Positions 17,255 through 35,947 of a DNA stretch of 64,000 nt are shown piece after piece. The notes under the pieces are model-generated. The model worked only from the letters and a program-made list of their open reading frames with translations. It was not told the DNA's origin and searched no databases. The DNA lies in the NCBI GenBank assembly GCA_017500825.1, contig JAFVYB010000024.1, positions 17,193 through 81,192 on the forward strand, in the 5' to 3' direction. The position numbers and the translations under genes were made by a program. Origin of the DNA: Myxococcaceae bacterium (GTDB lineage: Bacteria; Myxococcota; Myxococcia; Myxococcales; UBA5297). Positions within the stretch are counted from its first letter, which is position 1. The number at the start of each line of letters is the position of its first letter.

Positions 17255-17877
17255 TGTCCGGCAATAATGGCCTGCGCGAGCGCCTTTTCATCTTGAGGCA
17301 AAAAGGGAAATTCTGTCGCCGCAATGCCGACATTTTCCGGCGCATGCGCGTCACTGCCCCCGGTCATGTGCCAGCCGCGCTCCTGGGCGAGGCTTTTGGC
17401 GCGCTTGCTGTCGTCGCCTTTGGTCATGGAACTGGAAACCTCCAATCCATGAATTCCGAGGCGAATATCGGGAAAATGCTCGGGTGAAAGCATATTGCGG
17501 TAAACCAAGTAGGGATGCGCCCAGATAAGCGCCGCTCCCTGCTCCCGGGCGACATCAATGACCCGCTGAATAGGGCAACCACGCGGTGTCTCCGCCAATG
17601 ATTCCAAACCAAAGGCGAGAATATGCGCATGATCCGCAGAAATCTCGACGCCGCGATAAAGCCGGACACCCTCCACGCCTTCGGATGAACTGTGGATGAG
17701 CTCCTGCAATTCATCTTCGGACCAGAGCATGTCGTGCTCGGTAATAACGCCGCCGCTCAAACCGCGCTCGTGGAGTCTGGAGATAAGCATCTCCGGTTCC
17801 AAAAGCGGGGCACACGGCGAATAGCGCGACGTATGCATATGCAGATCAAGAATGAATCGTCCCATTCGTTCTCTCAA
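17194..17877 (-). CDS. PHP-domain metal-dependent phosphoesterase
   Basis: DLHMHTSRYSPC... and later HP / GGSDAH histidine motifs of the PHP (polymerase/histidinol phosphatase) fold. Confidence 0.7.
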   Translation of the reverse strand: MRERMGRFILDLHMHTSRYSPCAPLLEPEMLISRLHERGLSGGVITEHDMLWSEDELQELIHSSSEGVEGVRLYRGVEISADHAHILAFGLESLAETPRGCPIQRVIDVAREQGAALIWAHPYLVYRNMLSPEHFPDIRLGIHGLEVSSSMTKGDDSKRAKSLAQERGWHMTGGSDAHAPENVGIAATEFPFLPQDEKALAQAIIAGQCRPKVLSTKSSTPRKKCSS

Positions 17878-17946
17878 GATTAAAGGCGCCCCCGAACAAA
17901 TCGGAAGCGCCTTTTAAACAAGGCTTCAAAACAAAGCCTTGGATGA

Positions 17947-18948
17947 TTACCGCAGAACGGGCGCGATCTCGCTCATGGCGTTGTTGAGGCGCATCTTGGC
18001 GAGAGCGATGTTGCCCTCCTTCTCGATCATCATGATGACGTGGAAGTGAGCGCGGCCCTGCGCCGTCACGGTGTAGTCGGTGGCCTCGTTGAGGCAGCGG
18101 GCGAAGGCGTGACCCTTGGGCGCCTCCATATGGATAACCGTCGCGCGACCGACGCCCATGAGCTCGGCGGCGTTCTGGCTCTTGAGGAGGATGTCATTGG
18201 CCAGCGCGGCGACTTCGTTGAGTTTGAGTCCCTGTGGGTTGTTTTGGGCCAAAACCTCGCCTTCGGGCGAAACAATGGCGGCGCCAACAAAACCTTCAAC
18301 GGCCGACAGCTTCTTCAGGATCTTATCCAACTCTTCCATCTCTGCATCTCCTAGGTTGACGATTGTGGGCATGGGGGGAGCTGTTTCTAAGTCCTGTGAA
18401 CCTTCGGACTTGGCCTCCTCGGCGCCAGTGGACGCGTCGGAAGAACCGCTCTCCGGCATTTCAGGCGCGGCTTCTTGAGTCTGGACGGCCTCCGCGCCAC
18501 CGCCGTCCGATTCGGCTGGCACCGAGTCGACGGAAACATTTCCGTTCAACCAATTGTCCAAAAGGACCTCGGTGCTTTGAAAGTTTTCACGCTTAATTCT
18601 GCGTTTTGGGACGGGCAATTCATTGAGCTGGAAATCCTCCTCGCCCAATACTTCATAAAACGCGGGAATGCCTCGCAATTTACCGCTGACAGCATTCCAG
18701 AGCATTCCATCCTCAAAATAGAGAAAGGCGTTTCCTTTTTTGGAGACGACGGCAAAAAGCCCCGTCCTTTTTTCATAGGAAAATCCCCGCAATACATCCG
18801 CGAGTTTTACGCCTTTGGGACAAGCCAACCTCATAAGAACCACCTCTTTTATCCCGATGGCGAACGGGCGATCGCCTCTCTCAATCGTTTTTATCGACCC
18901 GCCGTCATCTGCCTTCGTCTCCCAGACCGAAGGTTGATTTGTCTTCAA
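17947..18948 (-). CDS. DUF4388 (PatA-like N-terminal) + Roadblock/LC7 (MglB-like) fusion protein with acidic linker
   Basis: N-terminal LADVLRGFSYEKRTGLFAVVSKKGNAFLYFEDGMLWNA... is the DUF4388 pattern. C-terminal VEGFVGAAIVSPEGEVLAQ... is Roadblock/LC7-like. An acidic Ser/Glu-rich linker lies between them. Confidence 0.6.
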   Translation of the reverse strand: MKTNQPSVWETKADDGGSIKTIERGDRPFAIGIKEVVLMRLACPKGVKLADVLRGFSYEKRTGLFAVVSKKGNAFLYFEDGMLWNAVSGKLRGIPAFYEVLGEEDFQLNELPVPKRRIKRENFQSTEVLLDNWLNGNVSVDSVPAESDGGGAEAVQTQEAAPEMPESGSSDASTGAEEAKSEGSQDLETAPPMPTIVNLGDAEMEELDKILKKLSAVEGFVGAAIVSPEGEVLAQNNPQGLKLNEVAALANDILLKSQNAAELMGVGRATVIHMEAPKGHAFARCLNEATDYTVTAQGRAHFHVIMMIEKEGNIALAKMRLNNAMSEIAPVLR

Positions 18949-19111
18949 ACATAAAAATTCGACACTCTGCCTAAACGCGTCCAGATGTCAAATTTCGCGG
19001 GGTACCTGTCGGTATCGAACCGCTTCGGTCCCTACCCCCACAGGCAAACGTCTGATTTGGGCGGCGCCCCATACACGCTGGCCGAGCGAAAGCAAGTCCC
19101 GAGGAGTCACG

Positions 19112-19570
19112 ATGAACACGGTCCCTGATGCCCGCGAACAAGACGAAACAAGACGCGATGGCACCGCTGTCGAGAGCGGTGAGCCGACACAGGCCGAGAG
19201 CGCTTTTAAGGATGCGGCTGACGGTTCCGAGGCAGGCGGGGCGAAGGGTGAAGGCAACGCGCGGGACACGAACCCAAAGGAGCAATCAGCGCCACGACGA
19301 GCCGAGCCGCGCTTTCACGTGAGGCCCAACGGCGGCGGGAGCGAATTGGACATTGCCGACTTCGCCGAGCTGCTGCGTCTGTATCGAGCGGGCTTCATTG
19401 GCGACGAGGACGAGATCCGGCGGGCGGGCACCGAGCTCTGGCGGCGGGCGGGACAGATGCCCGAACTGCGAACGCTCAGGCCGCGCCCATGGCTGGAAGG
19501 CAATGAGTTTCCTCTTTTGGCGGCCCTGCTCTGCGCGGTGACGCTCGTCCTGATTCTGATCCTGCGCTGA
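19112..19570 (+). CDS. hypothetical protein with GYF-like DUF4339 motif and C-terminal TM helix
   Basis: FHVRPNGGGSELDIADFAELLRLYRAGFIGDEDEIRRAGTELWRRAGQMPEL matches the NG..GP...EL..L...G.I...T.VW..GM..W pattern. Terminal LLAALLCAVTLVLILIL. Confidence 0.45.
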   Translation: MNTVPDAREQDETRRDGTAVESGEPTQAESAFKDAADGSEAGGAKGEGNARDTNPKEQSAPRRAEPRFHVRPNGGGSELDIADFAELLRLYRAGFIGDEDEIRRAGTELWRRAGQMPELRTLRPRPWLEGNEFPLLAALLCAVTLVLILILR

Positions 19571-19822
19571 GCCTGTTGGAGGCGGTTCGAGATGGGCGAT
19601 TCGAGGCTGTCTTTGAGGGAAAAACCGCTCTGCGGCGTCCCCTTTCCGGCGGCGCTTCTCCCCCTTGCGCGCGAAGTCTGATCTTCTAAAAGGCCGCCCC
19701 CCAACTTCAGGCGGCTGGTCGCTCCCTCTGGAAGCCTGGCGCCTGTCTGCAGGTCGCGGCGCACGGCATCGCGGCCTTGAGCGGGTGGGCCCACGCGCGC
19801 CCGCCACACGAAGGTGTCTTCA

Positions 19823-21469
19823 ATGACAAAGCTGAATTCCCTCTCAGGTTTCGAACGCCGCCGCGGGCCGGTGGTGCTGGTGATTATGGATGGCGTCGGC
19901 TTCGGCAAATACGAGGAGGGCGACGCGGTGAAAGCGGCCAGCACGCCCACGCTGGACGCGCTCCTCAAGGACGCGCCGAACTGCCGGCTCAAGGCGCACG
20001 GCCGGGCGGTTGGGCTGCCCTCGGACGCGGACATGGGCAACTCGGAGGTCGGGCACAACGCCATGGGCGCCGGACGCGTCTTTGATCAGGGCGCATCGCT
20101 CGTTTCCAAGTCGATCACCTCGGGCGACATGTTCGCGGGCAAGGCGTGGCGCGAGGTCGTCGACGGCGCCAAGGCGGACAAGGCGCTGCACTTTCTCGGC
20201 CTGTTCTCCGACGGCAACGTCCACAGCCACATCGATCACCTCAAGGCGATGGTCGAACGGGCCTGCGCGGAGGGCGTGAAGAAAATCCGCGTCCACATCC
20301 TGCTTGACGGCCGCGATGTGGGTGAGACGAGCGCGCTCGATTACGTCATCCCCTTCGAAGCCTTCCTCGCAGAGGTGCGCGCCAAGGGGTGCGACGCCAG
20401 GATCGCCTCGGGCGGCGGGCGAATGTTCATCACCATGGACCACTACGGCGCGGACTGGTCGATGGTCGAGCGCGGCTGGAAGACGCACGTGCTCGGCGAA
20501 GGGCGGCAGTTCGCCTCGGCCCAAGAGGCCATCGAGACGCTGCGCCAGGAGACGGGCGCCATCGATCAGGATCTCGGCGCGTTCGTCATCGCGGAGGGGG
20601 GCGTTCCTGTCGGCGCGATCGAGGACGGCGACAGCGTGGTGCTCTTCAACTTCCGCGGCGATCGCGCGCTGGAAATCACGGCGGCCTTCGAGAGTGGCGA
20701 CGACTTCGACAAGTTCGAGCGCGGTCGCGTCCCCCGCGTCACCTACGCCGGCATGATGGAATACGACGGCGATTTGCACGTGCCGCAGCGCTACCTCGTC
20801 GCGCCGCCCGCCATCGACCGGACCCTCGGCGAATACCTCTGCGCGCTGGGACTGCGCACGCTGGCCGTCTCCGAGACGCAGAAGTTTGGGCACGTGACCT
20901 ACTTCTTCAACGGCAACAAGTCGGGGAAGATCGACGAGGCGCTGGAGGAATACGTCGAGATTCCGTCGGACATCGTCCCCTTCGAGCAGCGGCCGTGGAT
21001 GAAGGGCGCCGAAATCACCGATCGCGTGATCGAGGGCATCGAGAGCGGTCGCTTCGACTTCATCCGCTGCAATTTCCCCAATGGCGACATGGTCGGTCAC
21101 ACCGGCAGCTTCGAGGCGGCGCGCATCGCGGTGGAGACCGTCGACCTGTGCCTCGCGCGCATCGTCAAGGCGGTGAAGAAGGCTGGCGGCGTCCTCGTCG
21201 TCACGGCCGATCACGGCAACGCCGACGACATGTTCGAGCACAAGAAGGACGGCAGCGTGCCCATGGTGAACGGCGTCAGGAAGGTGAAGACGGCGCACTC
21301 GCTCAACCCGGTGCCCTGCGTCGTCTACGACCCCGAGGGGAAGGGCGAATACGGCGCCACGTTGCGTGATGGACTGGGCATCAGCTCGATCGCGGCCACG
21401 GTCATCGAGCTGCTCGGCTACGCGGCCCCCACCGACTACGACCCGAGCGTTCTCGTCTTCGACGCCTGA
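19823..21469 (+). CDS. gpmI: 2,3-bisphosphoglycerate-independent phosphoglycerate mutase
   Basis: VVLVIMDGVGFG..., NSEVGHNAMGAGRV, C-terminal TADHGNAD. ATG at 19823 with aAGGTG upstream is preferred over the GTG at 19814. Confidence 0.9.
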   Translation: MTKLNSLSGFERRRGPVVLVIMDGVGFGKYEEGDAVKAASTPTLDALLKDAPNCRLKAHGRAVGLPSDADMGNSEVGHNAMGAGRVFDQGASLVSKSITSGDMFAGKAWREVVDGAKADKALHFLGLFSDGNVHSHIDHLKAMVERACAEGVKKIRVHILLDGRDVGETSALDYVIPFEAFLAEVRAKGCDARIASGGGRMFITMDHYGADWSMVERGWKTHVLGEGRQFASAQEAIETLRQETGAIDQDLGAFVIAEGGVPVGAIEDGDSVVLFNFRGDRALEITAAFESGDDFDKFERGRVPRVTYAGMMEYDGDLHVPQRYLVAPPAIDRTLGEYLCALGLRTLAVSETQKFGHVTYFFNGNKSGKIDEALEEYVEIPSDIVPFEQRPWMKGAEITDRVIEGIESGRFDFIRCNFPNGDMVGHTGSFEAARIAVETVDLCLARIVKAVKKAGGVLVVTADHGNADDMFEHKKDGSVPMVNGVRKVKTAHSLNPVPCVVYDPEGKGEYGATLRDGLGISSIAATVIELLGYAAPTDYDPSVLVFDA

Positions 21470-21495: not shown

Positions 21496-21915
21496 ATGCA
21501 GAGCCTCAAGGACAAACTCGTTCAGGCGGGCGTGATCAGCGCCGATCGCGTAGCCGGTGAGACCGAGGAGCAGCGTTCGCGACGCCTCAACCGCGAGACG
21601 GCCGAGCGCCGCGCCAAGGTCAAGGCAGTGGTCCAAGGCGCCGCCATCGAGACCACCATCGGCGAGCACGTCTTTTTCTTCACCACGCGCTCCCGAAAGA
21701 TGCGGCGGCTGGTCATCGAGGCCGAGATCAAGGCCGGTTTGGAAGAGGGGCGCCTGGCGGTGGTCGAACTGCCGGACAAACCAGACTTTCCCTGGGCCGT
21801 CGTGCCGCGCGCCACCGCAGAGAAGGTGCTCAAGATCGACCCCGTCGCCGTCCGTTTCTACGTGCGGCGCAAGGGCGAGATTTTTGGAGCCGTCGCCGAC
21901 GACGATGTCAGCTAG
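21496..21915 (+). CDS. DUF2058-like hypothetical protein
   Basis: MQSLKDKLVQAGVIS... basic N-terminus with conserved C-terminal half. Family assignment is from memory only. Confidence 0.4.
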   Translation: MQSLKDKLVQAGVISADRVAGETEEQRSRRLNRETAERRAKVKAVVQGAAIETTIGEHVFFFTTRSRKMRRLVIEAEIKAGLEEGRLAVVELPDKPDFPWAVVPRATAEKVLKIDPVAVRFYVRRKGEIFGAVADDDVS

Positions 21916-21993: not shown

Positions 21994-24174
21994 ATGATGC
22001 GCCTCCTCCCCCTCGCCCTCCTCTGCGCCGCCTTTGGCCTGAACTGCGGCGGCGAAGCGATCGTTCCCGGCACCCCAGGCAACACGGGCGTCTGCAGCCC
22101 GGGCACGGACAGCGTCCTCACCGCGCTCGAACTGACGCCCACGAGCGTCTCCCTGTCGCCCGGCGCGCGCGTCCAGCTCTCTGTGAAAGCGACTTACAGC
22201 GACGGCTGCAGCATCGACGCGACCAACGCGGTCTACCTGACCATCGGCGACAGCTCCCTGGCCAAGATCGGCCGCGAGAAGCTCGGCGACGGCAGCTCGA
22301 TTCGCTACGTCGAGGGCGTGGCGGTCGGACAGACATCGCTCATCGCCAGCACGCAGAAGGGCGGCGCGGGATTCGCCTCGGCGGCCACCAGCATCGACAT
22401 CGCCGACTGCTCAGTGGCGAGCGTGCCGGAGGGGACGCCTGTCGTGGCCCTGACCACCTTCCCCAGCCTCATCCAGATCGAGACCGGCGCCTCGACGCGC
22501 GTGCAGGCCTTCGCCACCTGGACGACGGGCTGTGTCTTCGACGCCTCTGACCGCATCCACTTCACCGTCGCCGACACCTCGGTGGCGAGCATGGGCGTGT
22601 CCACGAACGCGTCGGGCGAATCGATCCACCAGATCACGGGACAGTCGGTGGGGACGACCACGCTCATCGCCAGTCTCAAGGCCAATGGCGAAGGGCTGGC
22701 GGCGAGCCCTGTCACGGTCAACGTCATCGCGCCCGGCAGCGGCACGCTCCAGCCTCCCGGCGACAACACCGATCAGCCGGATCAACCCGACCAGCCGATC
22801 GATCAGCCTGTCGACACGCCCGAACCAACGCTGACGCTCTATCCGGCCAATCTCGACATGAGCCCGGTCGACCGAATGCCGATTCAGGTGGTGCTGACGA
22901 AGGCGGACGGCGTGACGCAGGACGTGACCAGTCTGGCGACGATCGCCACGGGCGACAGCGCGATCGCCAAATTCGTCGAGGTCAGTCTGGCGGTGGACAA
23001 GGCGACGCGGTTTGTCGAGGCGGTGGCCCACGGGGCGACGACGCTGAGCGCGAGTTACGCGGTCGACGGCAAGACGCTGACGGTGAGCAGGCCCATCACG
23101 GTGAAGAAGCGCGCCACGGAGACGCGGGGCATCTGGGTCTCGCGCTGGAACATCGGCACTTCGGAGTCGGCGGTGCGCGCCAACATCCAGAAGTTTGCCC
23201 AGCACGGGTTCAACGCCGTCTTCTTCCAGGTGATGGGCGACGGCACGGCCTATTACGACTCGAAGATCCTGCCGAAGAAGAACGCCAGCTGGGACGCGTT
23301 GGCGGTGGCGATCGACGAGGCGCGCAAGCAGGGCGTCGAACTGCACGCCTACATCAACGCGCTGGTCGGGCCGACGAGCGTTCCCTCGGGGCACATTCTG
23401 GAAAAGCACCCGGAATTCATCTGCCTCGACGCCTCGGGGAACGCCTATCCCAACGACGGCTACACCTGGATCGCGGCGGACGACGCCTACATCGAGCACT
23501 ACCGGCTGGTGGTGCGAGAGATCGTCCAGAACTACGACGTGGACGGCATCCACGTGGACCGCATCCGCTCGCCGAGCAAAGACACCTGCCACTCACCGGC
23601 GCTGGACGCGCTCTACGCCACGGAAAAGGCGGCGGGCCGGGTGTCGAGCTGGAGCGAGTTCTACACAGGGCGCGTCACCAAGATCATGCAGGCCATCTAC
23701 GAAGAGGTGGTGGCGCATAAGCCGAGCGCGCTCGTCTCGGTGGCGGCGTGGGGCATCTACAAGAAGTTCTCCGGCTGCGGCACGAGCCAGGGCATCGACT
23801 ACAATCAGGACACTGTGGCCTGGGCCGAGATGGGCATCGTCGACGCGCTGATGCCGATGACCTACTGGGATTTCGACGCCTATGGCGGCTGCGCGGACTG
23901 GGGGCGGCTGGCGGACTTCTTCAAGGCGAACCTCCACGGCCGGATGCTGGTCATGGGCATGCACGCCACGGAGTCCAACTCGCCGAACCACATGTACACG
24001 GATGGCAAGGTCCATCTGGATCGCATCACCGCCCGCATCGACTACGCGCGTTCGATCGACCTGGCCGGCACGGTGATCTTCGCCAGCAACTATCTGAGCG
24101 ACGCCGACTGGGACGGCATCCTCGCCGGGCCTTACGCGACCGACGCAGACCCGACGCCGATGGTCCACCGCTAG
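21994..24174 (+). CDS. lipoprotein with N-terminal Big_2 (Ig-like) domains and C-terminal glycoside-hydrolase-like family 10 (GHL10/YngK, DUF187) domain
   Basis: Lipobox LNC-GG. Repeated Ig-like LT/VS blocks. C-terminus GIWVSRWNIGTSESAVRANIQKFAQHGFNAVFFQVMGDGTAYYDS... typical of GHL10. Confidence 0.6.
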   Translation: MMRLLPLALLCAAFGLNCGGEAIVPGTPGNTGVCSPGTDSVLTALELTPTSVSLSPGARVQLSVKATYSDGCSIDATNAVYLTIGDSSLAKIGREKLGDGSSIRYVEGVAVGQTSLIASTQKGGAGFASAATSIDIADCSVASVPEGTPVVALTTFPSLIQIETGASTRVQAFATWTTGCVFDASDRIHFTVADTSVASMGVSTNASGESIHQITGQSVGTTTLIASLKANGEGLAASPVTVNVIAPGSGTLQPPGDNTDQPDQPDQPIDQPVDTPEPTLTLYPANLDMSPVDRMPIQVVLTKADGVTQDVTSLATIATGDSAIAKFVEVSLAVDKATRFVEAVAHGATTLSASYAVDGKTLTVSRPITVKKRATETRGIWVSRWNIGTSESAVRANIQKFAQHGFNAVFFQVMGDGTAYYDSKILPKKNASWDALAVAIDEARKQGVELHAYINALVGPTSVPSGHILEKHPEFICLDASGNAYPNDGYTWIAADDAYIEHYRLVVREIVQNYDVDGIHVDRIRSPSKDTCHSPALDALYATEKAAGRVSSWSEFYTGRVTKIMQAIYEEVVAHKPSALVSVAAWGIYKKFSGCGTSQGIDYNQDTVAWAEMGIVDALMPMTYWDFDAYGGCADWGRLADFFKANLHGRMLVMGMHATESNSPNHMYTDGKVHLDRITARIDYARSIDLAGTVIFASNYLSDADWDGILAGPYATDADPTPMVHR

Positions 24175-24373
24175 AGCGCGCCACATCCCGCAGGAGAGCC
24201 CGGGCCCCGAACGAGGACTCGGGCTTTTTTGCGCCGCCCGTTTTCCGAACGCCTTTTGGCCACGACGCGACCGCCGTGAGCGCCTTCGGTTCCGCGCCAC
24301 GTCAAGGCCGGGCCCCGATTGCCCCGCGCGGCAGCGACGCGACCGCCCAACGCCACGCGCCGAAGAGAGAGCA

Positions 24374-25975
24374 GTGTCCCTGAAGTCCACGCGACGCGAC
24401 CTGACCGCGATTCTCGCCAGCCGACGCCTGCGCGCGGTGAGCCTCCTCTCCATCTCCTCGGGACTGCCGCTGGGTCTCGTCACGGTGGCCATCCCGGCGT
24501 GGATGACGATGGTCGGCGCCGACATCCGCACGGTCGGACTGCTGACGGCCGCGCAGGCGCCCTACGCCTTCAAATTCCTCTGGGCGCCGCTCGTCGATCG
24601 CCTCGGCGTTCCAGGTCTTTCGGGCAAACGCGGCTGGATTTTCGCCAGTCAAATCGCCCTCGCCGCACTCACGTTCGCCCTGGCCGCGCAGGCGCATTCG
24701 CCCCAGGTCGGGCTGGTGGCCGCGCTCGCGCTCCTCGTCGCCTTGGCCTCGGCCACGCAGGACATCGCCATCGACGCCTACGCCGTGGAGGTCCTCCAGT
24801 CGGACGAACAGGGACTCGCCGTCGGCACGCGCACCGCCCTCTACCGCGCCGCCATGTGGCTTTCGGGCGCCATCGCCATCTCGGTCGGCCCTCTCGTCGG
24901 CTGGAGCTGGACCGTCGCCGCCCTCGCGCTCATCTACCTCGCGCTGTTGCCGGTGACCTGGCGCTCGCCCTCGCCCGAAGGGACATCGCCGCCGCCGCAG
25001 ACGCTCCGCGAAGCTGTCCTCGCGCCCCTGATCGGCCTGTGGCTCAAGCCGCGCGCGCTCGAAATCGTCGCCTTCGTCCTGCTCTACAAACTGGCCGACA
25101 ACCTGGCCGTGGCGCTCGTCCGCCCCTTTCTCGTCCAGGTGGGCTTCGCGCCGATCGATGTGGGCGTGGCCAGCGGCACGGTGGGTCTCATCGCGACGCT
25201 CCTCGGCACCTTTCTCGGCGGACTTTGGACAAACCGCCTCGGCGTGGGCCGTTCGCTGTGGGTCTTCGGGCTCCTGCAGGCCTTTGCCAACGGCGGTTAC
25301 GCGCTCCTCGCCGAATCAAGGCCAAACCGGGCGTTGCTCTACGCGGCCACGGCCTTTGACTCGGGCGCCTCGGGGCTCGGCACAGGCGCCTTCATGGTTC
25401 TGCTCCTGAGACTCACCTCGAAGCGCTTCAGCGCCACGCAATACGCCGTCCTCTCCAGCCTCTTCGCCATTGGCCGAACCGTGGCCGGGCCCGTCGCCGG
25501 GGTGCTCGCCGACGCTTTGGGCTGGCGCGATTTTTTCCTCGTCACCATCGCCTTCAGCGCGCCCGGGCTGTGTCTGCTGCAGCGCTTCGTCCCCTGGCGC
25601 GAACGCGATTTGCCCACCTCGATCGAAGGGGATGGCGGACGCGATGTGATGTGTTCTCCCCTCGCCATCGAACGACGCGCCCTCGTCGGCCCAGTCATCT
25701 GCGGCGGCATTCTCGGCTTTGCCCTGGCCACGGTGGCACTGATGGCGACGGCGGCGCTCAAGGCCCACCGACTCGGCGAGGCCTTTTCGGCGCTCGACTG
25801 GCTGATGGCGCTCCTGAAGCCCTCGTCCCTCGACGCGGCGCTCGATCTTTTGGGCGCTCTGGCCTGCGCGATGCTCCTCGGCCTGACGCTGGCGGCGCAC
25901 CGGGCGGCGCAGCTGGCTCAGCGACTCGATTCCCCACCCAAGGCGCCGGAAATGCCCGCGACACCGGCAAGTTAG
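24374..25975 (+). CDS. ampG: AmpG family muropeptide MFS permease
   Basis: FKFLWAPLVDR signature, ~14 TM helices, 533 aa. Confidence 0.8.
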   Translation: MSLKSTRRDLTAILASRRLRAVSLLSISSGLPLGLVTVAIPAWMTMVGADIRTVGLLTAAQAPYAFKFLWAPLVDRLGVPGLSGKRGWIFASQIALAALTFALAAQAHSPQVGLVAALALLVALASATQDIAIDAYAVEVLQSDEQGLAVGTRTALYRAAMWLSGAIAISVGPLVGWSWTVAALALIYLALLPVTWRSPSPEGTSPPPQTLREAVLAPLIGLWLKPRALEIVAFVLLYKLADNLAVALVRPFLVQVGFAPIDVGVASGTVGLIATLLGTFLGGLWTNRLGVGRSLWVFGLLQAFANGGYALLAESRPNRALLYAATAFDSGASGLGTGAFMVLLLRLTSKRFSATQYAVLSSLFAIGRTVAGPVAGVLADALGWRDFFLVTIAFSAPGLCLLQRFVPWRERDLPTSIEGDGGRDVMCSPLAIERRALVGPVICGGILGFALATVALMATAALKAHRLGEAFSALDWLMALLKPSSLDAALDLLGALACAMLLGLTLAAHRAAQLAQRLDSPPKAPEMPATPAS

Positions 25976-25983
25976 GACTCGCC

Positions 25984-26898
25984 ATGGTCAACCTCTTCCA
26001 GAGCCACAGCCGTTCTTTTGAAGACAACCGCCACGTCTACCCAGTGGTCAGTCGCCGGGCGCGCGGCATGTCCATCGGCGTCGACCTCTGCCCCGGCCGC
26101 TGCACCTTCCGCTGCGTCTATTGCAGCGAGTTCGGCGCGCTCACCTCGCCACCTTCCGACGTGCCAACGCACTGTGCCGAGCAGGCGCGCGGCGGCATCG
26201 ACCTCGACCTGTTGCGACGCGAACTGACGGCCATGCTCGCGGCCATCCTCGGCGGCGAGATCTTCCTGCACCCGCCCTTTGACGAGACGCCCGACGCCTA
26301 TCGACGCCTCAACGACATCGCCCTGAGCGGTTCTGGCGAGCCGACACTTTCGCCCGCGTTCGAGGCTGCCTGCGCGCTGATCGGCGAACTCGGCCAGTCG
26401 GTGCGTGGCCAGGAACCGGGCAAGTGGCCTCGTCCCAAGCTGGTCCTGATCACCAACGCGACGGCGCTCCACCTGCCGAGCGTCTGGCGCGGCCTCGACG
26501 CCCTGAGAGCGCAGGGAGCCATGGAGGCGGAAATCTGGGCCAAGCTCGACGCCGGGACCGAGGCGCACTACGCGGCGATGAACCGCGCGCGCGTTCCCCT
26601 GGACCGGGTGCTCCAGAACCTTTTGACGGCAGGACGGCGGCACAGGCTCGTCATCCAGTCGCTCTTTGGCGAACTCGACGGACGGCCTCCCTCCGCGGAC
26701 GAGATCGACGCCTGGCTCGACAGGCTCGACGCGCTGCGCCAGGGCGGCGCCGACATCGCTGGCGTGCAGGTCTACACGGTGGCGCGACAGACAGCCGAAC
26801 CGACGATCCGCGCCCTGTCGGACGAGGCGCTGGTGGCCATCGCCGAACGCGTCCGATCTCGCGGTTTTGTCGCCGACTGGTTTGGCAGCGGTCGCTGA
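25984..26898 (+). CDS. radical SAM protein
   Basis: CPGRCTFRCVYC (CxxxCxxC) near the N-terminus. ATG at 25984 lies 8 nt after the ampG stop, with AGGA upstream. The ORF-track N-terminal extension overlaps ampG out of frame and is rejected. Confidence 0.65.
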   Translation: MVNLFQSHSRSFEDNRHVYPVVSRRARGMSIGVDLCPGRCTFRCVYCSEFGALTSPPSDVPTHCAEQARGGIDLDLLRRELTAMLAAILGGEIFLHPPFDETPDAYRRLNDIALSGSGEPTLSPAFEAACALIGELGQSVRGQEPGKWPRPKLVLITNATALHLPSVWRGLDALRAQGAMEAEIWAKLDAGTEAHYAAMNRARVPLDRVLQNLLTAGRRHRLVIQSLFGELDGRPPSADEIDAWLDRLDALRQGGADIAGVQVYTVARQTAEPTIRALSDEALVAIAERVRSRGFVADWFGSGR

Positions 26899-27016
26899 AA
26901 CGCCCTGAAACGCCCCTCGCGAACGCGCGCGTTTCTCCCCGGTCCAACCGTTGCGCCAAGAGTCCTCTCCCGCTAGGGGCGCGCCGCCAATCGAGCCCCT
27001 CCCCCATCGCAGCACT

Positions 27017-29908
27017 GTGGAACCGCCCGCCGTGAACCGTCATCCCACCGCCTGGACCATCGCCCTCGTCGTCATCTTCACCGTCGTGCTCTCGCTGTTG
27101 CCGCTGCCTGACTCGCTGCAGCCACTCGCGTTTCGCAAAGACGGCGTGGGGCCGACGCTGCTGGCCACGCTCATGCCGCAGCACGGGCGCCAGACGCTCG
27201 ACGAAATCCGCCACGCCCACCTCGACGAACAGACCAGCGCCTCAGCGCCCGAAGCGCTCGCCGACCTGCTCGCGGCAACACCGACAGAGGTCGCGCCAAA
27301 GGCGAGTGACGCGGCGACCGGCGACAAGAACGCGCAAGCGGACAAACTCGACAGCGAGAGCGGGCCCCAACCGGCGGCCAAGGCGGCGGACGCGGACCCG
27401 AATTTTTGGCTGCACACGAACAGCGCGCCTCCCGTGGCCTGGCTCAGCGCGGGCGCCAAATCGTTCGCCGACTTCCGGCGCATCGAGGCTCTGGCGCGAC
27501 GTGTGGGCGCCTCGCACCGCGACATCGAAGAAGGCTGCCGAGACCCTTCATCGGACACGGCGACCAACGCGGACGCGGCCAACGCCACAGGAACAAGCGG
27601 CGGCGCCAGACCGACCGCCTGCCATCAGCGCGCGCTCGATCCCTTTTTCGACGCCCTGGCCGAGATCGGGGCGGGAGAACGGCGCGAAGCGGTGCGCGTC
27701 GTCCACATCGGCAACTCGCTGATCGCCTCGGATTACGTGGCCAGCACCATTCGCCGTCAGCTCTCGGACCGATACGGTTCGGGCGGCACGGGATTTCTCT
27801 TCGTCGACAGGCCGACGCGCATCTCCGGGAGCTTCGACCGCGTGGGCAAGGCGAGCGCTGGCTGGAACATCTCGCTGCTCACCGATCGCGGCGACCGCAG
27901 CCGGCAGGGGCTGGGGGGCGCGCGCTACACCTCCAAGACGAACGCCCGCGAAGAAGTCCGCTTTGCCCTGCGCGACAACACGAGCGCCGAGATCGCCTGG
28001 CTGGCCCGCGCCGACGGCGGCCTGATCGACATCGCCATCGACGGCAAGCGCCACGGCAAGCCCATCTCCACGCGCGGACCCGCAGACGAAGCGTCCTTCA
28101 CCAAAATCGACCTGCCCAAAGGCGCCCGCGAGCTCACGCTGTCGACGCGCGAGGGATCGGTCGAGCTCTTCGGCGTCACGCTGGAAAACGGCAGGCCGGG
28201 CATCGTCCACGACACCTACGGTCTGCCGGGCGGCACCGCCGATGTCTTCCTGCAGGCGGACGAGGCGATCTTTGGCGCGCAGCTCAAACGGCGCGACCCG
28301 GCGATGGTGCTGATCATGCTCGGCGGCAACGAGAGCTACGAGATGAGCCGTGGCTGGATGAGCGCGGCCAAGGCACGCAAGACGGCGGGCGACTTCATCG
28401 ATCGCGTCCGCGGCAACGTCCCCAACGCCGCCTGCGTCGTCACCTCCCCGCTCGACGCCGGCGTCCGCAGCGCCAGCGGCACGATCTCGCCGCGACCGTT
28501 CGGCCCCGAGGTGCGCGACATGCTGCGCGAGGAGTCACTCAAGCGCGGCTGCGCCTTCTGGGACATGCACGGCGCCATGGGCGGCGTCGGTTCGGCAGGG
28601 CGCTGGTTCGAGGCCAAACTCATGAGCGAGGACCTGGTTCACCCGCGCGGCAAAGGCGCTGAAATCCTCGGACACCTCTTTGTCGCGGCGCTGGAACGGG
28701 CCCGGCTGACGCGCGCGGCCACGGCGAACGACCTGCGTCAGGACCCTCCGGGCATCGGCGCGCCTGAACGACTCGAACGATTCTTCGGCAAGCTCGACGC
28801 GCTCGATCGCAAGGAGCGACAGGCGCCCGTCAACGTCGTGCAGATCGGAGCCTCGCACACCGCGGCGCACTTTTTCACCGACGCGGCGCGAACGAGGCTC
28901 GCCAAGGAATTCGGCGGTTCGGGCCGGGGGTTTGTCGCCGCGGGCGCCTCTTCCAAGCGACTGCGTCAGGCCGGTGTCGAGCGCACCCCTGTCGGCGACT
29001 GGAAGGTCCACGACGCGCGCGAGTTTCCGCCGGGCGGTATCTGGGGGCTGACCGGTATCCGCGCCGAAGGCCAGCCAGGCGTGCGACACGTCTGGCGTTT
29101 TGGTCTCGACGACAAGCGGGCCGACAAAACTCCGGGCTCGATCTCGCTCCACTTCCTCGACGCGCCGGATCTTAAAGGGCGTCTCTCTGTGAAGATCGAC
29201 GGCGGCGCCCCGATGGCGATCGAGCTCGGTGGCGTGAATGAACCGACCGCGCGCGTGGAGCGTTGGCCAGTTCAGGGCGTCTCGCACCTCATCGAGGTCA
29301 CCAACGAGAGCCAGTCGGCGGTTTCGCTCTTTGGCGCGGCGCTCGATCTCGACCGCCCGGGCATCCGCTGGGACGCGCTTGGACTTCCCGGAGCCACGGC
29401 CATCCTCGCCGACGGCTTTGACAGGCGCGCCCTCAAGGCCCAGCTCGCCACGCGCCAGGCCGACCTCCTCGTCCTCTTCTACGGGACGAACGAAGCGGAC
29501 CTCATCGACCTCGACGCCGCCACGCTCACCGCGCACTACACCTCGCTCCTGACGACCCTCCGCGGCGCCGCGCCCGAGGCCGAGTGCCTGATCATCGGCC
29601 CCACCGACCGCCTCGACCCATCCAAAGGACCGCAGGCACTGGCGCCCTCGATGGCGCTCTCCAACGCGACGATCCGCCAGGTGGCGCGCGACGCTGGATG
29701 CGCGTTCTGGTCTTCGCGGCGGGCCATGGGCGGGACGCGCTCGATGTTGCGCTGGCAGGAGGCGACCCCTCCGCTCGGACACCGCGACGGCGTCCACCTG
29801 ACCCCCAAGGGCTACGAGATCCTCTCCACCGCCCTGACCGACGCCCTCCTCGACGAGTGGCGCGCGCACCAAAAACGCGCCCAGGCCAGCGCCAAGACAA
29901 CGCCCTGA
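27017..29908 (+). CDS. membrane-anchored protein with two tandem SGNH/GDSL hydrolase-type esterase domains
   Basis: N-terminal TM helix (WTIALVVIFTVVLSLL). Two repeats each with VVHIGNSLI / VVQIGASHT (block I Ser), MLGGNE / FYGTNE (block III) and DLVHP / DGVHL (block V). The start is uncertain: GTG at 27017/27032 is likelier than the TTG at 26951. Confidence 0.6.
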   Translation: MEPPAVNRHPTAWTIALVVIFTVVLSLLPLPDSLQPLAFRKDGVGPTLLATLMPQHGRQTLDEIRHAHLDEQTSASAPEALADLLAATPTEVAPKASDAATGDKNAQADKLDSESGPQPAAKAADADPNFWLHTNSAPPVAWLSAGAKSFADFRRIEALARRVGASHRDIEEGCRDPSSDTATNADAANATGTSGGARPTACHQRALDPFFDALAEIGAGERREAVRVVHIGNSLIASDYVASTIRRQLSDRYGSGGTGFLFVDRPTRISGSFDRVGKASAGWNISLLTDRGDRSRQGLGGARYTSKTNAREEVRFALRDNTSAEIAWLARADGGLIDIAIDGKRHGKPISTRGPADEASFTKIDLPKGARELTLSTREGSVELFGVTLENGRPGIVHDTYGLPGGTADVFLQADEAIFGAQLKRRDPAMVLIMLGGNESYEMSRGWMSAAKARKTAGDFIDRVRGNVPNAACVVTSPLDAGVRSASGTISPRPFGPEVRDMLREESLKRGCAFWDMHGAMGGVGSAGRWFEAKLMSEDLVHPRGKGAEILGHLFVAALERARLTRAATANDLRQDPPGIGAPERLERFFGKLDALDRKERQAPVNVVQIGASHTAAHFFTDAARTRLAKEFGGSGRGFVAAGASSKRLRQAGVERTPVGDWKVHDAREFPPGGIWGLTGIRAEGQPGVRHVWRFGLDDKRADKTPGSISLHFLDAPDLKGRLSVKIDGGAPMAIELGGVNEPTARVERWPVQGVSHLIEVTNESQSAVSLFGAALDLDRPGIRWDALGLPGATAILADGFDRRALKAQLATRQADLLVLFYGTNEADLIDLDAATLTAHYTSLLTTLRGAAPEAECLIIGPTDRLDPSKGPQALAPSMALSNATIRQVARDAGCAFWSSRRAMGGTRSMLRWQEATPPLGHRDGVHLTPKGYEILSTALTDALLDEWRAHQKRAQASAKTTP

Positions 29909-29970
29909 CCAACACTTCGCGCTTTGGGTGAACGCCTCGGCGACGCCCTTTCCAGGACCCCTCCCCGGCC

Positions 29971-30957
29971 ATGTTCGACACCTCCCTCGCCGCGCTGCCG
30001 CTCTGGTTTTGGGCCGCCACCGCCTTCCTCATGGCCGCCTGCATCGGCAGCTTCCTCAACGTCGTCGTGGCCCGCGTGCCGCGCGAAGAGTCCATCGTCT
30101 GGCCGGGTTCGCACTGCTTCACCTGCGGCGCCCCCATCGCCGCGCGACACAACCTGCCGATCCTCTCCTGGTTCCTGCTGCGCGGGCGCTGTCACGACTG
30201 CAAGGCGCCCTTCTCCATCCGCTACGCCCTGGTCGAGCTGGCCTTTGCCTCCCTCTGCTGCCTGGCCATCGTCCGCCACGGAGGCCCGACGCTCGCCGCG
30301 TTCGAGGAATGCGCGCTTCTGGCCCTGCTCATCACGCTGGCCTGCATCGATCTCGACACCTGGCTCTTGCCGCACAGCGTGACCATCCCGGGCATCGCCA
30401 TCGGCCTCGCCTTTGCCCTGCCGCTCGGCTCGGACATCTTCCTCAACCGCCTTTTGGCCGCGGGCATCGGCTACGCGGTGCTCTTCGTCGGCGCGCTCAT
30501 CGGCGAACGGGTGCTCGGCAAGGAGGCGATGGGCGGCGGCGACTTTGTCCTCTTCGCCCTCATCGGCGCCTTCCTCGGAACGCGCGCGCTTTTGCCGGTC
30601 ATCTTCCTCGCCTCGCTTCAGGGGGCGGCCGTTGGCATCGCGCTGATTGCCCACAAACGCGCGGCAGGCCTTTCGACGGACGACGAAGACACCAACGACG
30701 GCGCGGACGGCGAATCGGCGGAAACCTCCACCAAAAACGAGACTGAAAACGCGGCGGAAACAGAGCAGGGCGCCGCGGCGATCGCGCTCACGCCTCAGGC
30801 AGAGCACAACCCGCTGAGCATCAGCGCCAAGATCCCCGACGACGGGTGGGAGCCCGATCCCCACGCCATCCCCTTCGGCCCCTTCCTCGCTCTGGGCGCG
30901 GCGGAGGTCCTCTACTTCTCCCGCCTGCCCGACATCCTCTTCCCCTGGATCCCCTAG
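29971..30957 (+). CDS. pilD: prepilin (type IV leader) peptidase/N-methyltransferase, A24 family, with C-terminal acidic insertion
   Basis: N-terminal Zn-binding tetracysteine domain (CFTCG...CHDC) and polytopic A24 core (GGGDFVLFALIGAFLG). Confidence 0.8.
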   Translation: MFDTSLAALPLWFWAATAFLMAACIGSFLNVVVARVPREESIVWPGSHCFTCGAPIAARHNLPILSWFLLRGRCHDCKAPFSIRYALVELAFASLCCLAIVRHGGPTLAAFEECALLALLITLACIDLDTWLLPHSVTIPGIAIGLAFALPLGSDIFLNRLLAAGIGYAVLFVGALIGERVLGKEAMGGGDFVLFALIGAFLGTRALLPVIFLASLQGAAVGIALIAHKRAAGLSTDDEDTNDGADGESAETSTKNETENAAETEQGAAAIALTPQAEHNPLSISAKIPDDGWEPDPHAIPFGPFLALGAAEVLYFSRLPDILFPWIP

Positions 30958-31002: not shown

Positions 31003-31704
31003 ATGCCCTCCCAGTTCGCAATCACCTACCGCTTCCACCTCTCCGAGGGCGCGCCCGTCGAATGCACCGTCTCGCTCGACCCACGCACGATGCGCATTCA
31101 AACGCCGCTGCCAGCCACGCTCCCCGCCTGGACCGCCCTCGGCTACGAGCGCTGCCCCAACTGCACGCTCGACAGCGACGAACACCCCTGCTGCCCGACC
31201 GCCGCCCACATCGTCGCCCCCATCAAGCTCTTCTCGCAGATCCCCTCGTTCGCCCAGGCGCGCGTCGAGTGCGTGACCGCCGAGCGCACGAGCTTCAAGG
31301 ACTGCACGGTGGCCGAGGGCCTCAGCTCGCTCTACGGCATCTACATGACGGGCAGCGGCTGTCCGGTCCTCAAAGTGCTGCGCCCCCTGGTCCGCTACCA
31401 CCTGCCCTTCGCCACGCGCGACGAGACGGTCTACCGCGCGGCGTCGCTCTGGCTGCTCGGCCAATACCTTCGCGAGTTCAACGAGAACGAGACGATCGAC
31501 TTTTCGCTGCGCAAGCTCTCGGCGCACTACCGAGAAATCGGCGAGGTCAACGCTGCCTTCGCGCGCCGCATCCAGTCAGCGGTGGCCCTCGACGCCAGCC
31601 TCAACGCCATCGTTCAGCTCGACTACTTCGCCCAGTCGTCGACCAACTTCATCGAGAACGGGTTGAAGGATCTGCGCGCCATGTTCTCGGCCTGGCACGA
31701 CTGA
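31003..31704 (+). CDS. hypothetical protein (Cys-rich: CPNC...CC...C)
   Basis: No recognised family. Sits co-directionally between pilD and lpdA. Confidence 0.35.
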   Translation: MPSQFAITYRFHLSEGAPVECTVSLDPRTMRIQTPLPATLPAWTALGYERCPNCTLDSDEHPCCPTAAHIVAPIKLFSQIPSFAQARVECVTAERTSFKDCTVAEGLSSLYGIYMTGSGCPVLKVLRPLVRYHLPFATRDETVYRAASLWLLGQYLREFNENETIDFSLRKLSAHYREIGEVNAAFARRIQSAVALDASLNAIVQLDYFAQSSTNFIENGLKDLRAMFSAWHD

Positions 31705-31826: not shown

Positions 31827-33230
31827 ATGGCTCAAGCATTTGACGTGGTGGTGGTTGGCGCTGGTCCCGGTGGCTATGTGGCGGCCCTGCGCGCGGCGCG
31901 AAACGGACTCAAGGTCGCGCTCGTCGAGAGGGAAAAACGCCTCGGTGGCACCTGCCTTTTGCGCGGTTGCATCCCGACCAAAACCCTCCTCGAAACGGCG
32001 CGCCGACTCGACGAAACGCGCCACGCCGCCGACTTCGGCATCGATCTTGTCCAGGCGCCCACCGCCGATCTCGCGCGCGTCGTCCGCCGAAAGGATCGCG
32101 TCGTCGCCAAGCTGGCCGCTGGCATCGCCGGGCTGTGCCGCCGGGCCTGTGTCACCGTGATTCAGGGCGCCGCCCGACTGACCTCGCCCCACGACCTCCG
32201 CGTGACCCTGTCCGACGGCGCCGAAGAGTCGATCACGGCCCGCCACATCATCCTCGCCACCGGTTCCTCGGTGCGCGACCTCGCGGGACTGACGCCAGAC
32301 CACCGACGCATCCTCACCAGCGACTCGGCCCTCGCGCTCACCTCGCTGCCGCCAAAACTCCTCGTCCTCGGATCGGGCGCCGTTGGTTCCGAATTCGCCT
32401 CGCTCTTCCGAAGCCTGGGATCCGAAGTCACCGTCGTCGAGCTCATGGAGCGCCTGCTGCCGCTGGAGGACGAAGAGGTCTCGCGTGAAATCGAACGCGC
32501 CTTCCGCCGTCGCGGCATCGACTGCCTCACCTCGACGCGTCTCGAATCAGCCGAGCTCACCGATTCGGGCGTGCGCGCGCGCCTGCGCACCGGGGATGAA
32601 GACAGGACCATCGACGTCGACGCCCTGCTCGTCGCCATCGGCCGCGCCCCCAATTCCAGCGACCTGGGACTCGAATCGATCGGCATCACGCCCGACGCGC
32701 GCGGCCTCATTCCAGTCGACGCGTCCATGCGGACCCAGGCGCCGAGCGTCTTCGCCATCGGCGATCTCGTCGACTCGCCAGCACTGGCCCATGTGGCCTC
32801 GCACGAAGGTCGCATCGCCGCCGACGCCATCGCCGGCAAACCCACGCGCCCCCTCGATCGCGATCGCGTTCCAAGCGCCGTCTACACCTGCCCAGAGGTC
32901 GCCTCTATCGGCCTGACCGAAGCCGTGGCCCACTCGCGCGGCATCGGCACCCGCGTCGGCAAATTCCCCTTCGCCGCCAGCGGCAAGGCCAGCGTCCAGG
33001 GCGAGAGCGCGGGCTTTGTCAAACTCGTCGCCGACGAGAGGAACGGACGCCTCCTCGGCGCGCAAATCGTCGGGCCGCACGCCACCGAACTCATCGGCGA
33101 GATGTGCGCGGCACTGACCACCGGCGCGACGCTGGACGCCATCGCCGAGACCATCCACCCGCACCCCACGCTGAGCGAAACCGTCGCCGAGGCCGCGCTC
33201 GTCGCCTTGGGAACGCCACTGCACATCTGA
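31827..33230 (+). CDS. lpdA: dihydrolipoyl dehydrogenase
   Basis: VVVVGAGPGGYVAALRAA FAD motif, redox-active GGTCLLRGCIPTK, 467 aa. Confidence 0.9.
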   Translation: MAQAFDVVVVGAGPGGYVAALRAARNGLKVALVEREKRLGGTCLLRGCIPTKTLLETARRLDETRHAADFGIDLVQAPTADLARVVRRKDRVVAKLAAGIAGLCRRACVTVIQGAARLTSPHDLRVTLSDGAEESITARHIILATGSSVRDLAGLTPDHRRILTSDSALALTSLPPKLLVLGSGAVGSEFASLFRSLGSEVTVVELMERLLPLEDEEVSREIERAFRRRGIDCLTSTRLESAELTDSGVRARLRTGDEDRTIDVDALLVAIGRAPNSSDLGLESIGITPDARGLIPVDASMRTQAPSVFAIGDLVDSPALAHVASHEGRIAADAIAGKPTRPLDRDRVPSAVYTCPEVASIGLTEAVAHSRGIGTRVGKFPFAASGKASVQGESAGFVKLVADERNGRLLGAQIVGPHATELIGEMCAALTTGATLDAIAETIHPHPTLSETVAEAALVALGTPLHI

Positions 33231-34235: not shown

Positions 34236-35612
34236 TCACGGCGCCGCAGGTGTTCCAGGCGTCTTGGCCGCAGCGTTCGCCGACTCTTCGCCTGCGCTCG
34301 CTGGCGACGCCGCCACCAGTCGCGCCTCCGCCAAAGAGATCGTCGCCGCCAGATGCCGTCCCGAAGGCCAGCTCGACCACTCGTCGGGCAGGATTCGATC
34401 GAGGAGCACGCGCCGATCCAAACGGATGATCAGCCGAACCTGCGGAGCGATGTCGGCACGCGCGCGATCGATCCAGATCTCGATGGCGCCGGACGTGTCC
34501 GCCGGAATGACCGCGCGCGAGGTGTAGCCATCCGACGAAAGCGCGCACCACGGACGCGGCGAAGCGAACGCGCAAGTTTCGACACCGCTGGCCGAGGGCG
34601 AAGTGGCTTCCCGGCGACGCGTGACACTGAGCGAGAGCCCGCGCGCCCCCTCTGGCTCCTCCTCGACGAGCTCGATCTCGTAGTCGGGCACACCGGCGCT
34701 GAAATCGATCTGGCGGCGGCTCGTCAGACCATCGACGCGGGAAGCGGTCACTCCCAGGCGGAACAGGCCCTCGGCGCGGATGGGCAGGCGAACCTGGAGA
34801 TCGTCGACGCGTTCCATGGCGCCCTTCACGGAGGCGACGTTCATTTGCTCGATTTCATTTTTAGACGGCCGTGCAGAAACGTTGTCGGACACGGCCTCCC
34901 GATCGTTTTTAGACGGCTGTGCAGGAATGTTTTCGGGCGAGGCCAACAGCTCGAAATCAATCCGCGCTCCCGGCTCGCTCTGCGCCGCGCAGATCACCGA
35001 GTCACCGACGCGCGGCAGGGGCATCAGGCCCTCGTTCTGGTAGGGCGCGACCGGATGTTCGACGCGGCAGCTCAGCTCAAGCGCGGGCGGGTTGAGGCAG
35101 CTCTGGGCGCGATTCTGGCGCACGGCAAAGCGCACCTCGCCCTGATGTCGCGGCACGGCGACGAGGGCGGCGGGATAGGTCGCCCCTGGCGGAAACGGGC
35201 AACCCGACGCGGGCAGGCGCTCCTCGACGGCGACGTGGAGCGTGTCCTTCTCCCTGGTGATCCGCTCAAAGGCGATGGCGTGCCCGATCGATGGCCGCTC
35301 TCCGGAAAAGGCGACGAGGATCATCTCGCGCGAAAAATCGATGGTCGGGACCGGGATCGAGGCGGGCCACAGCGAGAGCCACTCAGCGCGCGTGCGAATG
35401 ACATGAAAGCCGCGTTTGCGCGCGCCCGGATGATTGGAAAAAGCGCGAGAGGGCCGCACGGCGACGGCCGGCAGACTCAGACGGCGCGACGACGCATCGA
35501 CGACGCGAATCTGATTGGGCGCTGGACAGCCCGTGACGAGAAACGCGGCGAGGGCGAGCGACAGGGGGATCGCGCCCAGTCTGCGACGCCGAAAAAAAGG
35601 AGGGTGGGTCAT
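34236..35612 (-). CDS. hypothetical lipoprotein containing an internal 15-aa tandem repeat
   Basis: MTHPPFFRRRRLGAIPLSLALAAFLVTGC is a lipoprotein signal peptide. Internal AQPSKNDREAVSDNV / ARPSKNEIEQMNVAS repeat is encoded by a tandem 45-bp DNA repeat of lower GC. Confidence 0.5.
   Translation of the reverse strand: MTHPPFFRRRRLGAIPLSLALAAFLVTGCPAPNQIRVVDASSRRLSLPAVAVRPSRAFSNHPGARKRGFHVIRTRAEWLSLWPASIPVPTIDFSREMILVAFSGERPSIGHAIAFERITREKDTLHVAVEERLPASGCPFPPGATYPAALVAVPRHQGEVRFAVRQNRAQSCLNPPALELSCRVEHPVAPYQNEGLMPLPRVGDSVICAAQSEPGARIDFELLASPENIPAQPSKNDREAVSDNVSARPSKNEIEQMNVASVKGAMERVDDLQVRLPIRAEGLFRLGVTASRVDGLTSRRQIDFSAGVPDYEIELVEEEPEGARGLSLSVTRRREATSPSASGVETCAFASPRPWCALSSDGYTSRAVIPADTSGAIEIWIDRARADIAPQVRLIIRLDRRVLLDRILPDEWSSWPSGRHLAATISLAEARLVAASPASAGEESANAAAKTPGTPAAP
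34857..34945. repeat. tandem ~45-bp direct repeat (x2) inside the lipoprotein gene carrying the box GCCGTCTAAAAA(C)
   Basis: tttttagacggccgtgcagaaacgttgtcggacacggcc / tttttagacggctgtgcaggaatgttttcgggcgaggcc. Its reverse complement matches the 13-mer at 10566 exactly. Confidence 0.7.
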
Positions 35613-35947
35613 CGTTCGCGGACGGCGCGCCAAAAAAGAAAAGCCCGGCTCGCTGGAGTCGGGCTTTCCGAGTGGGGTGGTCGAACACACGAGAGGTTTC
35701 GCTACCGTTGCTTCCTTCCGGACCTGGCGGGGTTCACGGCCCCCCGTTGCCCGACCATAAACGCGATGAGAGGCGCCCAGTCGCCAAGGCGCCTCAAAAA
35801 CGGCGCGGCCCTCTAGCAGGGCGATCCCGGTGCGCCAAGGCTTTTTTGGCCCCCCAAATGGGCCTCTTGACAGGCCTGAAATCGACGTTCCCGCCCCCCG
35901 GAAAGCGGCTTGCGGCGCCTCCCCCCCAGCCCTAAAGCGCGCGCGCC

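Follow-up and report, generated by a model that had tools for sequence, protein, structure and literature searches.

A conserved ampG-radical SAM gene pair among putative peptidoglycan-turnover genes of uncultured Myxococcota

The locus and its main components

The object of this analysis is a stretch of 64,000 nucleotides (the window) from the genome of a Myxococcaceae bacterium, in which a gene for an AmpG-family permease is followed closely by a gene for a radical S-adenosylmethionine (SAM) enzyme, here called rSAM. These two genes are the only tight unit at the locus, and the pair occurs in just one small clade, whose members are uncultured Myxococcota. Most of the locus is ordinary; its operon of ampG and rSAM is genuine but of narrow distribution, a curiosity tied to an orphan enzyme family. 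We lean, without great confidence, to the interpretation that three peptidoglycan-turnover genes, encoding a GHL10 protein, the permease and a tandem Ape1-like protein of the SGNH type, form a loose neighbourhood specific to this lineage, and that the link of rSAM to ampG is incidental.

The window is GC-rich (GC about 0.67), and its proteins are identical to those of the metagenome-assembled genome (MAG) 'Myxococcaceae bacterium' (MBR2978628-38). The NCBI names there are 'hypothetical protein IKC51_01705' for rSAM, 'MFS transporter' for the permease and 'family 10 glycosylhydrolase' for the GHL10 gene. The gene map was built with the guidance of GC content at third codon positions (GC3) and with Pfam scans. 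An earlier note on this DNA had described a co-directional envelope module of five genes: GHL10, ampG, rSAM, tandem SGNH and the prepilin peptidase gene pilD. Five genes of these kinds are indeed present, all on the + strand, as the Pfam, NCBIfam and PDB matches confirm.

Conservation and distribution of the ampG-rSAM pair

The permease gene (24374-25975, +; 533 aa) ends with a TAG stop at 25973-25975, and the rSAM gene (25984-26898, +; 304 aa) begins with an ATG at 25984, so that the 8-nt spacer reported before is correct. This ATG is the true start, since all homologues begin with M-(V/A)-N-L-F-Q. The stop codon of ampG is part of a TAGGA that resembles a Shine-Dalgarno sequence and precedes the rSAM ATG by 7-8 nt. 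The motif GGTTAGGA at the junction (25970-25983, +) is also present in the related loci L081, L084 and L085, and GGAG/GGAA is found in L086 and L087. The GC3 of the rSAM gene, 0.84, is like that of the neighbour genes. This arrangement suggests that both genes are co-transcribed.

The pair was detected in seven loci (the window, L081, L084, L169, L085, L086 and L087), where the spacing varies from -4 to +10 nt. In L081 and L084 (87% and 70% rSAM identity) the order ampG-rSAM-SGNH-PilD-DUF6901-Lpd is retained. L169 (70% rSAM identity) has kept the upstream part, iPGM-DUF2058-GHL10-ampG-rSAM, with a GHL10 homologue 68% identical to that of the window, and everything past rSAM differs. Just ampG-rSAM is left of the unit in L085 (60%), L086 (56%) and L087 (55%); in these three loci and in L169 the SGNH gene and pilD do not stand beside the pair. 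The adjacency, whose conservation in related genomes the earlier note had proposed to examine, thus holds over a range of rSAM identity from 87% to 55%, with changing flanks.

The same comparison disposes of the five-gene module, which was rejected because outside the close relatives only ampG-rSAM is kept. Inside the window, too, the genes are set apart. A gap of 199 nt separates the GHL10 gene from ampG, and a predicted terminator-like hairpin with a T-run (24206-24233, +), recognized by consensus scan and from the sequence, starts in it 32 nt past the GHL10 stop. In this gap upstream of ampG no Rfam element, riboswitch or leader was found, only sub-threshold Rfam noise. The distance between rSAM and the SGNH gene is roughly 50-135 nt with the revised SGNH start, which is not tight, and PilD is unlinked.

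How widely is the pair distributed? On the rSAM side we scanned GTDB species genomes, which gave at least 581 loci, and examined the best 80, most of them from Planctomycetota (72 of the 80 with at least 1.7 kb of upstream sequence). On the ampG side we took 80 metagenomic ampG relatives of 35-59% identity; 37 of these have at least 45% identity, and 27 of the 37 have at least 900 nt of downstream sequence. Since GC-rich DNA gives many alternative-frame open reading frames (ORFs), which prevailed in the raw clustering, the clusters were filtered. An AmpG-like gene is absent within 10 kb in 77 of the 80 best rSAM-family loci and present in three, namely L001 and L002, which belong to the linked clade, and L014, in which the two genes are divergent. 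GHL10, tandem SGNH and PilD genes occur near none of these 80 loci. Conversely, none of the 80 ampG relatives has a gene of this rSAM family within 5 kb, and the same count of zero was obtained for a GHL10 or an SGNH gene.

In neighbour-joining trees the linked rSAM proteins form one clade, and the linked AmpG proteins form one clade nested among unlinked AmpGs, which indicates that the co-directional pair arose once. L014 falls outside the linked clade on both gene trees. Of the proposal that ampG and rSAM belong together, the tight conserved unit therefore stands, but the pairing does not extend beyond one small clade.

Some genes farther from the pair also recur. In L086 (L086:5583-6860) and L087 (L087:4379-5479), two or three genes ahead of the pair, there is a gene of the SpoIID family, at a position comparable to that of GHL10 in the window and L169; SpoIID is another type of glycan-cleaving cell-wall enzyme. 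Residual long-range synteny around the pair includes a BacA gene nearby and a ComEC-CBM9 pair, which is located in the window at 1174-4984 (-), about 20 kb upstream of ampG, and in L085 about 2.5 kb upstream (L085:2004-5848).

The AmpG permease and the GHL10 protein

The permease aligns with the cryo-EM chain of Escherichia coli AmpG (9c3f) with E 1.5e-75, residues 18-402 against 16-402, that is, over the 12-helix core. The NCBIfam model TIGR00901 gives 334.1 bits, just under its cut-off of 350 (E 1e-99), and the scores against the equivalogs NF008867 and NF008238 are far below their cut-offs. By its sequence, the protein is a genuine member of the AmpG family (TIGR00901 / TC 2.A.1.25), for which muropeptide transport is predicted. 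It has in common with AmpG of E. coli and Pseudomonas aeruginosa the 12-helix core and the extra pair of C-terminal hydrophobic segments (435-464 and 484-510 in the window protein). Apart from the scores just given, it differs from these two systems in its gene position ahead of a translationally coupled rSAM gene. We know of no other AmpG for which such an arrangement has been described.

The GHL10 gene (21994-24174, +) encodes 726 aa and matches Pfam PF02638 with 79.6 bits against a cut-off of 27.9 (E 2.9e-22). Its product consists of a signal peptide, weak Ig-like repeats (Lig/Big_2) and a C-terminal GHL10 TIM-barrel at residues ~377-650. The structure of Cwp19 from Clostridioides difficile (5oq2) matches residues 400-650 with E 1.9e-13. 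The GHL10 domain of Cwp19 is a lytic transglycosylase which releases 1,6-anhydromuropeptides (PMC6016235). The window protein, with its homologous catalytic domain, is probably a peptidoglycan lytic transglycosylase of the Cwp19 type, and the products of the Cwp19 domain are the class of compounds that AmpG carries. The two proteins differ in their accessory domains, Ig-like repeats in one and CWB2 repeats in the other, and, unlike Cwp19, the window protein belongs to a diderm periplasmic or outer-membrane setting. Its signal region reads ...AAFGLNCGGE, with the cysteine in L-N-C and an asparagine at -1; the canonical lipobox is L-[AS]-[GA]-C. The lipoprotein of the earlier note is therefore only a putative one, although the N-C-G-G-E of this region is kept in the 68%-identical homologue of L169.

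The tandem Ape1-like protein and PilD

The tandem SGNH gene (~27032-29908, +; ~958 aa) has an uncertain start, which may be 26951, 27017 or 27032. A GTG at 27017 or 27032 is more likely than the TTG at 26951, since the relatives measure 952-988 aa. Pfam identifies two Lipase_GDSL_2 stretches, and there is one N-terminal hydrophobic segment. Ape1 of Neisseria meningitidis (4k3u) matches repeat 2 with E 1.3e-23 and repeat 1 with E 1.2e-12, near end to end, the alignments covering chain residues 11-368 and 54-370. An AlphaFold2 model (pLDDT 86.6) led in Foldseek to the same Ape1 structure with a target TM of 0.86 and to Campylobacter jejuni Ape1 (8gkd/8gld) with 0.81-0.85, and the next fold class, CE2 esterases, reached only 0.35.

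Both repeats hold the catalytic set of Ser, Gly, Asn and Asp-x-x-His (SGNH blocks I, II, III and V). Across 28 family sequences S229, G431-G432-N433, D534 and H537 of repeat 1 are invariant, and in repeat 2 G818, N820, D919 and H922 are invariant with S608 at 90% or more. Each repeat is an SGNH esterase domain with an inserted CBM35-like beta-sandwich, which is the architecture of Ape1. Judging from the model and these matches, the protein consists of two Ape1 modules anchored in the inner membrane, with a predicted esterase activity. Compared with Ape1 of Neisseria and Campylobacter, each repeat aligns over almost the whole length and keeps the beta-sandwich and the catalytic residues, whereas the fusion of two modules in one polypeptide and the N-terminal membrane anchor distinguish the window protein. 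At the sequence level, the solved PatB structures match neither of the two repeats. Lytic transglycosylases are blocked by O-acetyl groups on MurNAc, which Ape1 takes off (PMC1199599; PMC12148441).

Sequences of the tandem Ape1 family form 35 clusters, and every one comes from MAGs of Myxococcales or 'Deltaproteobacteria'. In three distant Myxococcota an MBOAT gene of the DltB/PatA class lies 0-2 nt downstream of the tandem Ape1 gene (L170:7001-11079, L171:7001-11338 and L172:7001-11489), much as ape1 and patB accompany patA. The combination suggests a condensed system of peptidoglycan O-acetylation and de-O-acetylation. In contrast to the patA-patB-ape1 cluster, no MBOAT was found across the 64 kb of the window, and PilD comes next instead, as also in the close relatives.

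The PilD gene (29971-30957, +) encodes both A24 domains, A24_N_bact (PF06750, E 6.6e-30) and Peptidase_A24 (PF01478, E 2.8e-18). It follows the SGNH gene only in the close relatives L081 and L084, and in distant homologues this place is taken by MBOAT. PilD is thus a neighbour and no part of a functional unit.

The radical SAM enzyme and its family

The rSAM protein carries the motif CTFRCVYC (CX3CX2C) with cluster cysteines C40, C44 and C47 and the SAM-binding motif SGSGEPT. Together with a partial TIM-barrel fold, this cysteine motif and a SAM motif of the GGE type place it in the radical SAM superfamily. The family alignment has 58 invariant positions, including the three cysteines, SG(S/D)GEPT and an N-terminal hairpin YPVxSRRxxGxSxG. 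The cluster cysteines are the only invariant ones, and L009 and L024 hold three cysteines in total. From this it follows that there is one cluster and no auxiliary site of the SPASM, twitch or TYW1 type. The enzyme is soluble and cytoplasmic, with a single [4Fe-4S] cluster and a minimal core that resembles the activase of pyruvate formate-lyase (PFL).

Several known classes were tried and rejected. SPASM and twitch domains, which the earlier note had left to be checked, are excluded by the three conserved cysteines and by a model that shows no extra domain. TYW1/Taw1 does not fit because conserved cysteines for a second cluster are missing. The RlmN/Cfr mechanism needs an additional cysteine, and the cysteine-dependent peptide epimerases fail for the same count of three. 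Activases of glycyl-radical enzymes (PFL-AE, NrdG) were discarded since no activase model matches and no gene of a partner enzyme lies nearby. The identity with the PFL activating enzyme is 13%, no activase NCBIfam model matches the window rSAM, no glycyl-radical enzyme gene lies near it, and it has in addition the N-terminal hairpin and C-terminal strands.

The family profile found nothing at E<=1 among all PDB chains, and no NCBIfam or PADLOC model matches rSAM, which is hence neither one of the known defence genes nor viperin-like. Clear membership in a housekeeping family, of which TYW1 would be an example, was not seen either; the earlier note had named such membership among the findings that would refute its proposal. 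Many homologues are labelled by IMG 'wyosine [tRNA(Phe)-imidazoG37] synthetase, radical SAM superfamily', which we take to be the name of COG0731. This label is not supported for the rSAM family.

This large family is uncharacterised. Its members come mostly from planctomycetes and stand alone. An exhaustive HMMER search gave at least 582 clusters (50% identity) at E<=1e-30, nearly all of 280-310 aa with a single domain, and the median pI is 6.2. Pfam profiling of immediate upstream and downstream neighbours in the 80 loci revealed no recurrent partner, the best being ketol-acid reductoisomerase (4/77).

Three observations concern the surroundings of rSAM elsewhere. The genes ilvH-ilvC (acetolactate synthase small subunit and ketol-acid reductoisomerase) lie co-directionally upstream of rSAM in 19 of the 80 loci, all from Planctomycetia (for example, L051:8280-9957). 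The search for fusions in the 150 best representatives returned one only, P0268 (499 aa), in which rSAM is joined to a CoaB-like phosphopantothenate-cysteine ligase domain (PF04127), possibly by an artefact of gene calling. In another Myxococcales MAG (L088:8001-10278) the genes after rSAM are those of thioredoxin and the epoxyqueuosine reductase QueG, and ampG does not precede it.

Interpretation of the locus

If the three cell-wall genes are read together, they describe a familiar sequence of events. The tandem Ape1-like esterase, anchored in the membrane, would strip O-acetyl groups from MurNAc in the periplasm, and this would let lytic transglycosylases act; the secreted GHL10 protein, being Cwp19-like, would cut the glycan strands to 1,6-anhydromuropeptides, and these would be imported by AmpG. 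Esterase, transglycosylase and permease fit the described turnover route of de-O-acetylation, lytic transglycosylation and AmpG import, which makes a new pathway unnecessary to account for them. The cell-wall theme noticed earlier is real, and it has become sharper, as the SGNH repeats are homologues of Ape1 and the GHL10 family includes the lytic transglycosylase Cwp19, but the undescribed glycan or peptidoglycan pathway that was suggested along with it is not supported.

The rSAM gene would be translated by coupling or by re-initiation at the ampG stop within a two-gene operon. Its product would cleave SAM reductively to a 5'-deoxyadenosyl radical, and a hydrogen atom would be abstracted from a substrate. 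It is apparently the only copy in this lineage of a stand-alone family centred in Planctomycetota and keeps all invariant residues, and because of this it most likely performs the same chemistry as the unlinked orthologues. The ilvH-ilvC synteny in 19 of 80 loci indicates that, depending on the lineage, the family enters one operon or another. The attachment to ampG, then, most likely reflects an operon structure that became fixed a single time, in one uncultured Myxococcota clade, rather than a step of a general pathway.

Several observations weigh against this interpretation. The pair persists where synteny breaks on both sides, including right after rSAM in L169, and this is the pattern expected from selection for co-expression. 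L014 represents a second, independent juxtaposition, with divergent genes belonging to other clades on both trees, and by a rough estimate the chance of such an event is about 3%. Just upstream of the pair, different subclades have genes of the lytic-transglycosylase type that are not homologous: GHL10 stands there in the window and L169, SpoIID in L086 and L087. The pair is thus found repeatedly in a cell-wall context. Moreover, we infer the independence of rSAM from the AmpG cargo solely from the distribution of the genes.

These same observations, the coupled junction with breakpoints on both sides, the case of L014 and the cell-wall genes that recur upstream, speak for selection on co-expression. 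In a direct link, rSAM would act on the cargo of AmpG as a cytoplasmic radical step of muropeptide catabolism or recycling in these Myxococcota, which are probably anaerobic and host-associated, and translational coupling would hold it in step with the permease. It might oxidize 1,6-anhydroMurNAc, open its ring or split the lactyl ether, in place of AnmK/MurQ. We regard such a link as rather unlikely. In 77 of the 80 loci the orthologue has the same invariant residues but no linked ampG, and elsewhere the family sits in other operons; close ampG relatives lack rSAM, and the L014 adjacency is not common to its nearest ampG relatives, L128 and L167. Literature searches gave nothing relevant on AmpG with radical SAM enzymes, on COG0731, or on radical SAM enzymes with peptidoglycan recycling, and to our knowledge no radical chemistry of this kind has been reported. 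None of the other recycling genes nagZ, ampD, anmK, murQ, ldcA and mpl lies within the 64-kb window. Less probable still is the stronger form, a new recycling step which replaces AnmK/MurQ-type chemistry on the AmpG cargo, with the planctomycete family doing likewise on cell-wall sugars from unclustered genes.

Two further explanations leave the cell wall aside. The position of rSAM downstream of ilvH-ilvC in Planctomycetia and the CoaB-like fusion would suit a role in branched-chain amino acid, pantothenate or CoA-related metabolism, the place next to ampG being incidental. However, this gene order occurs in one class only and may simply be inherited, the fusion is single among 150 representatives and could be artefactual, and we know of no radical SAM step in these pathways; we consider such a role improbable. 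An RNA-modification enzyme is more doubtful again. It would agree with the IMG wyosine name, with the thioredoxin and QueG genes that follow rSAM in L088, since QueG belongs to tRNA queuosine synthesis, and with a queuosine mannosyltransferase-like neighbour in another locus, but that name is itself unsupported and both the TYW1/Taw1 and the RlmN/Cfr types were rejected above.

Should the ampG-rSAM coupling be functional, rSAM would be the first radical SAM enzyme in peptidoglycan recycling, and a large orphan family would gain a function. The present value of the locus is more modest, as it gives a coherent annotation to genes which NCBI names only in general terms. The Myxococcota-specific tandem Ape1 protein, usually coupled with MBOAT, may represent a condensed variant of the O-acetyl-peptidoglycan machinery, and the ampG-rSAM operon is the best available handle on what the rSAM family does.

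Other features of the window

Upstream of the GHL10 gene lie the genes of iPGM (19814-21469, +) and of a DUF2058 protein (21496-21915, +), and past PilD follow those of a DUF6901 protein (31003-31704, +) and dihydrolipoyl dehydrogenase, Lpd (31827-33230, +), all four placed by the GC3 map and Pfam. A sigma-70 promoter scan of 19.5-33.5 kb returned 0 sites and is uninformative for this organism.

The sole Rfam match in the whole window is a bacterial small RNA of the signal recognition particle (SRP) at 35672-35760 (-), with 58 bits. The longest ORF at 34236-35690 (-), which has a PrcB_C domain, shares its first ~19 nt with this RNA; given this overlap, its true start is probably farther downstream. 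The region 12000-19800 has a GC of 0.54-0.60 against ~0.67 and contains GAPDH (15219-16232, -) and several short ORFs, with no tRNA and no Rfam match in it. An encapsulin shell gene (Linocin_M18, E 3.8e-57) is located at 55755-56726 (+), and the ORF after it (56926-57423, 165 aa) has no Pfam match. At 5107-9543 (-) there is a gene for a large BcrAD/BadFG ATPase with DUF2229 (1478 aa), of the 'CoA enzyme activase' type. Proteins of this type are typical of anaerobes, and its presence is consistent with an anaerobic lifestyle of the source organism.

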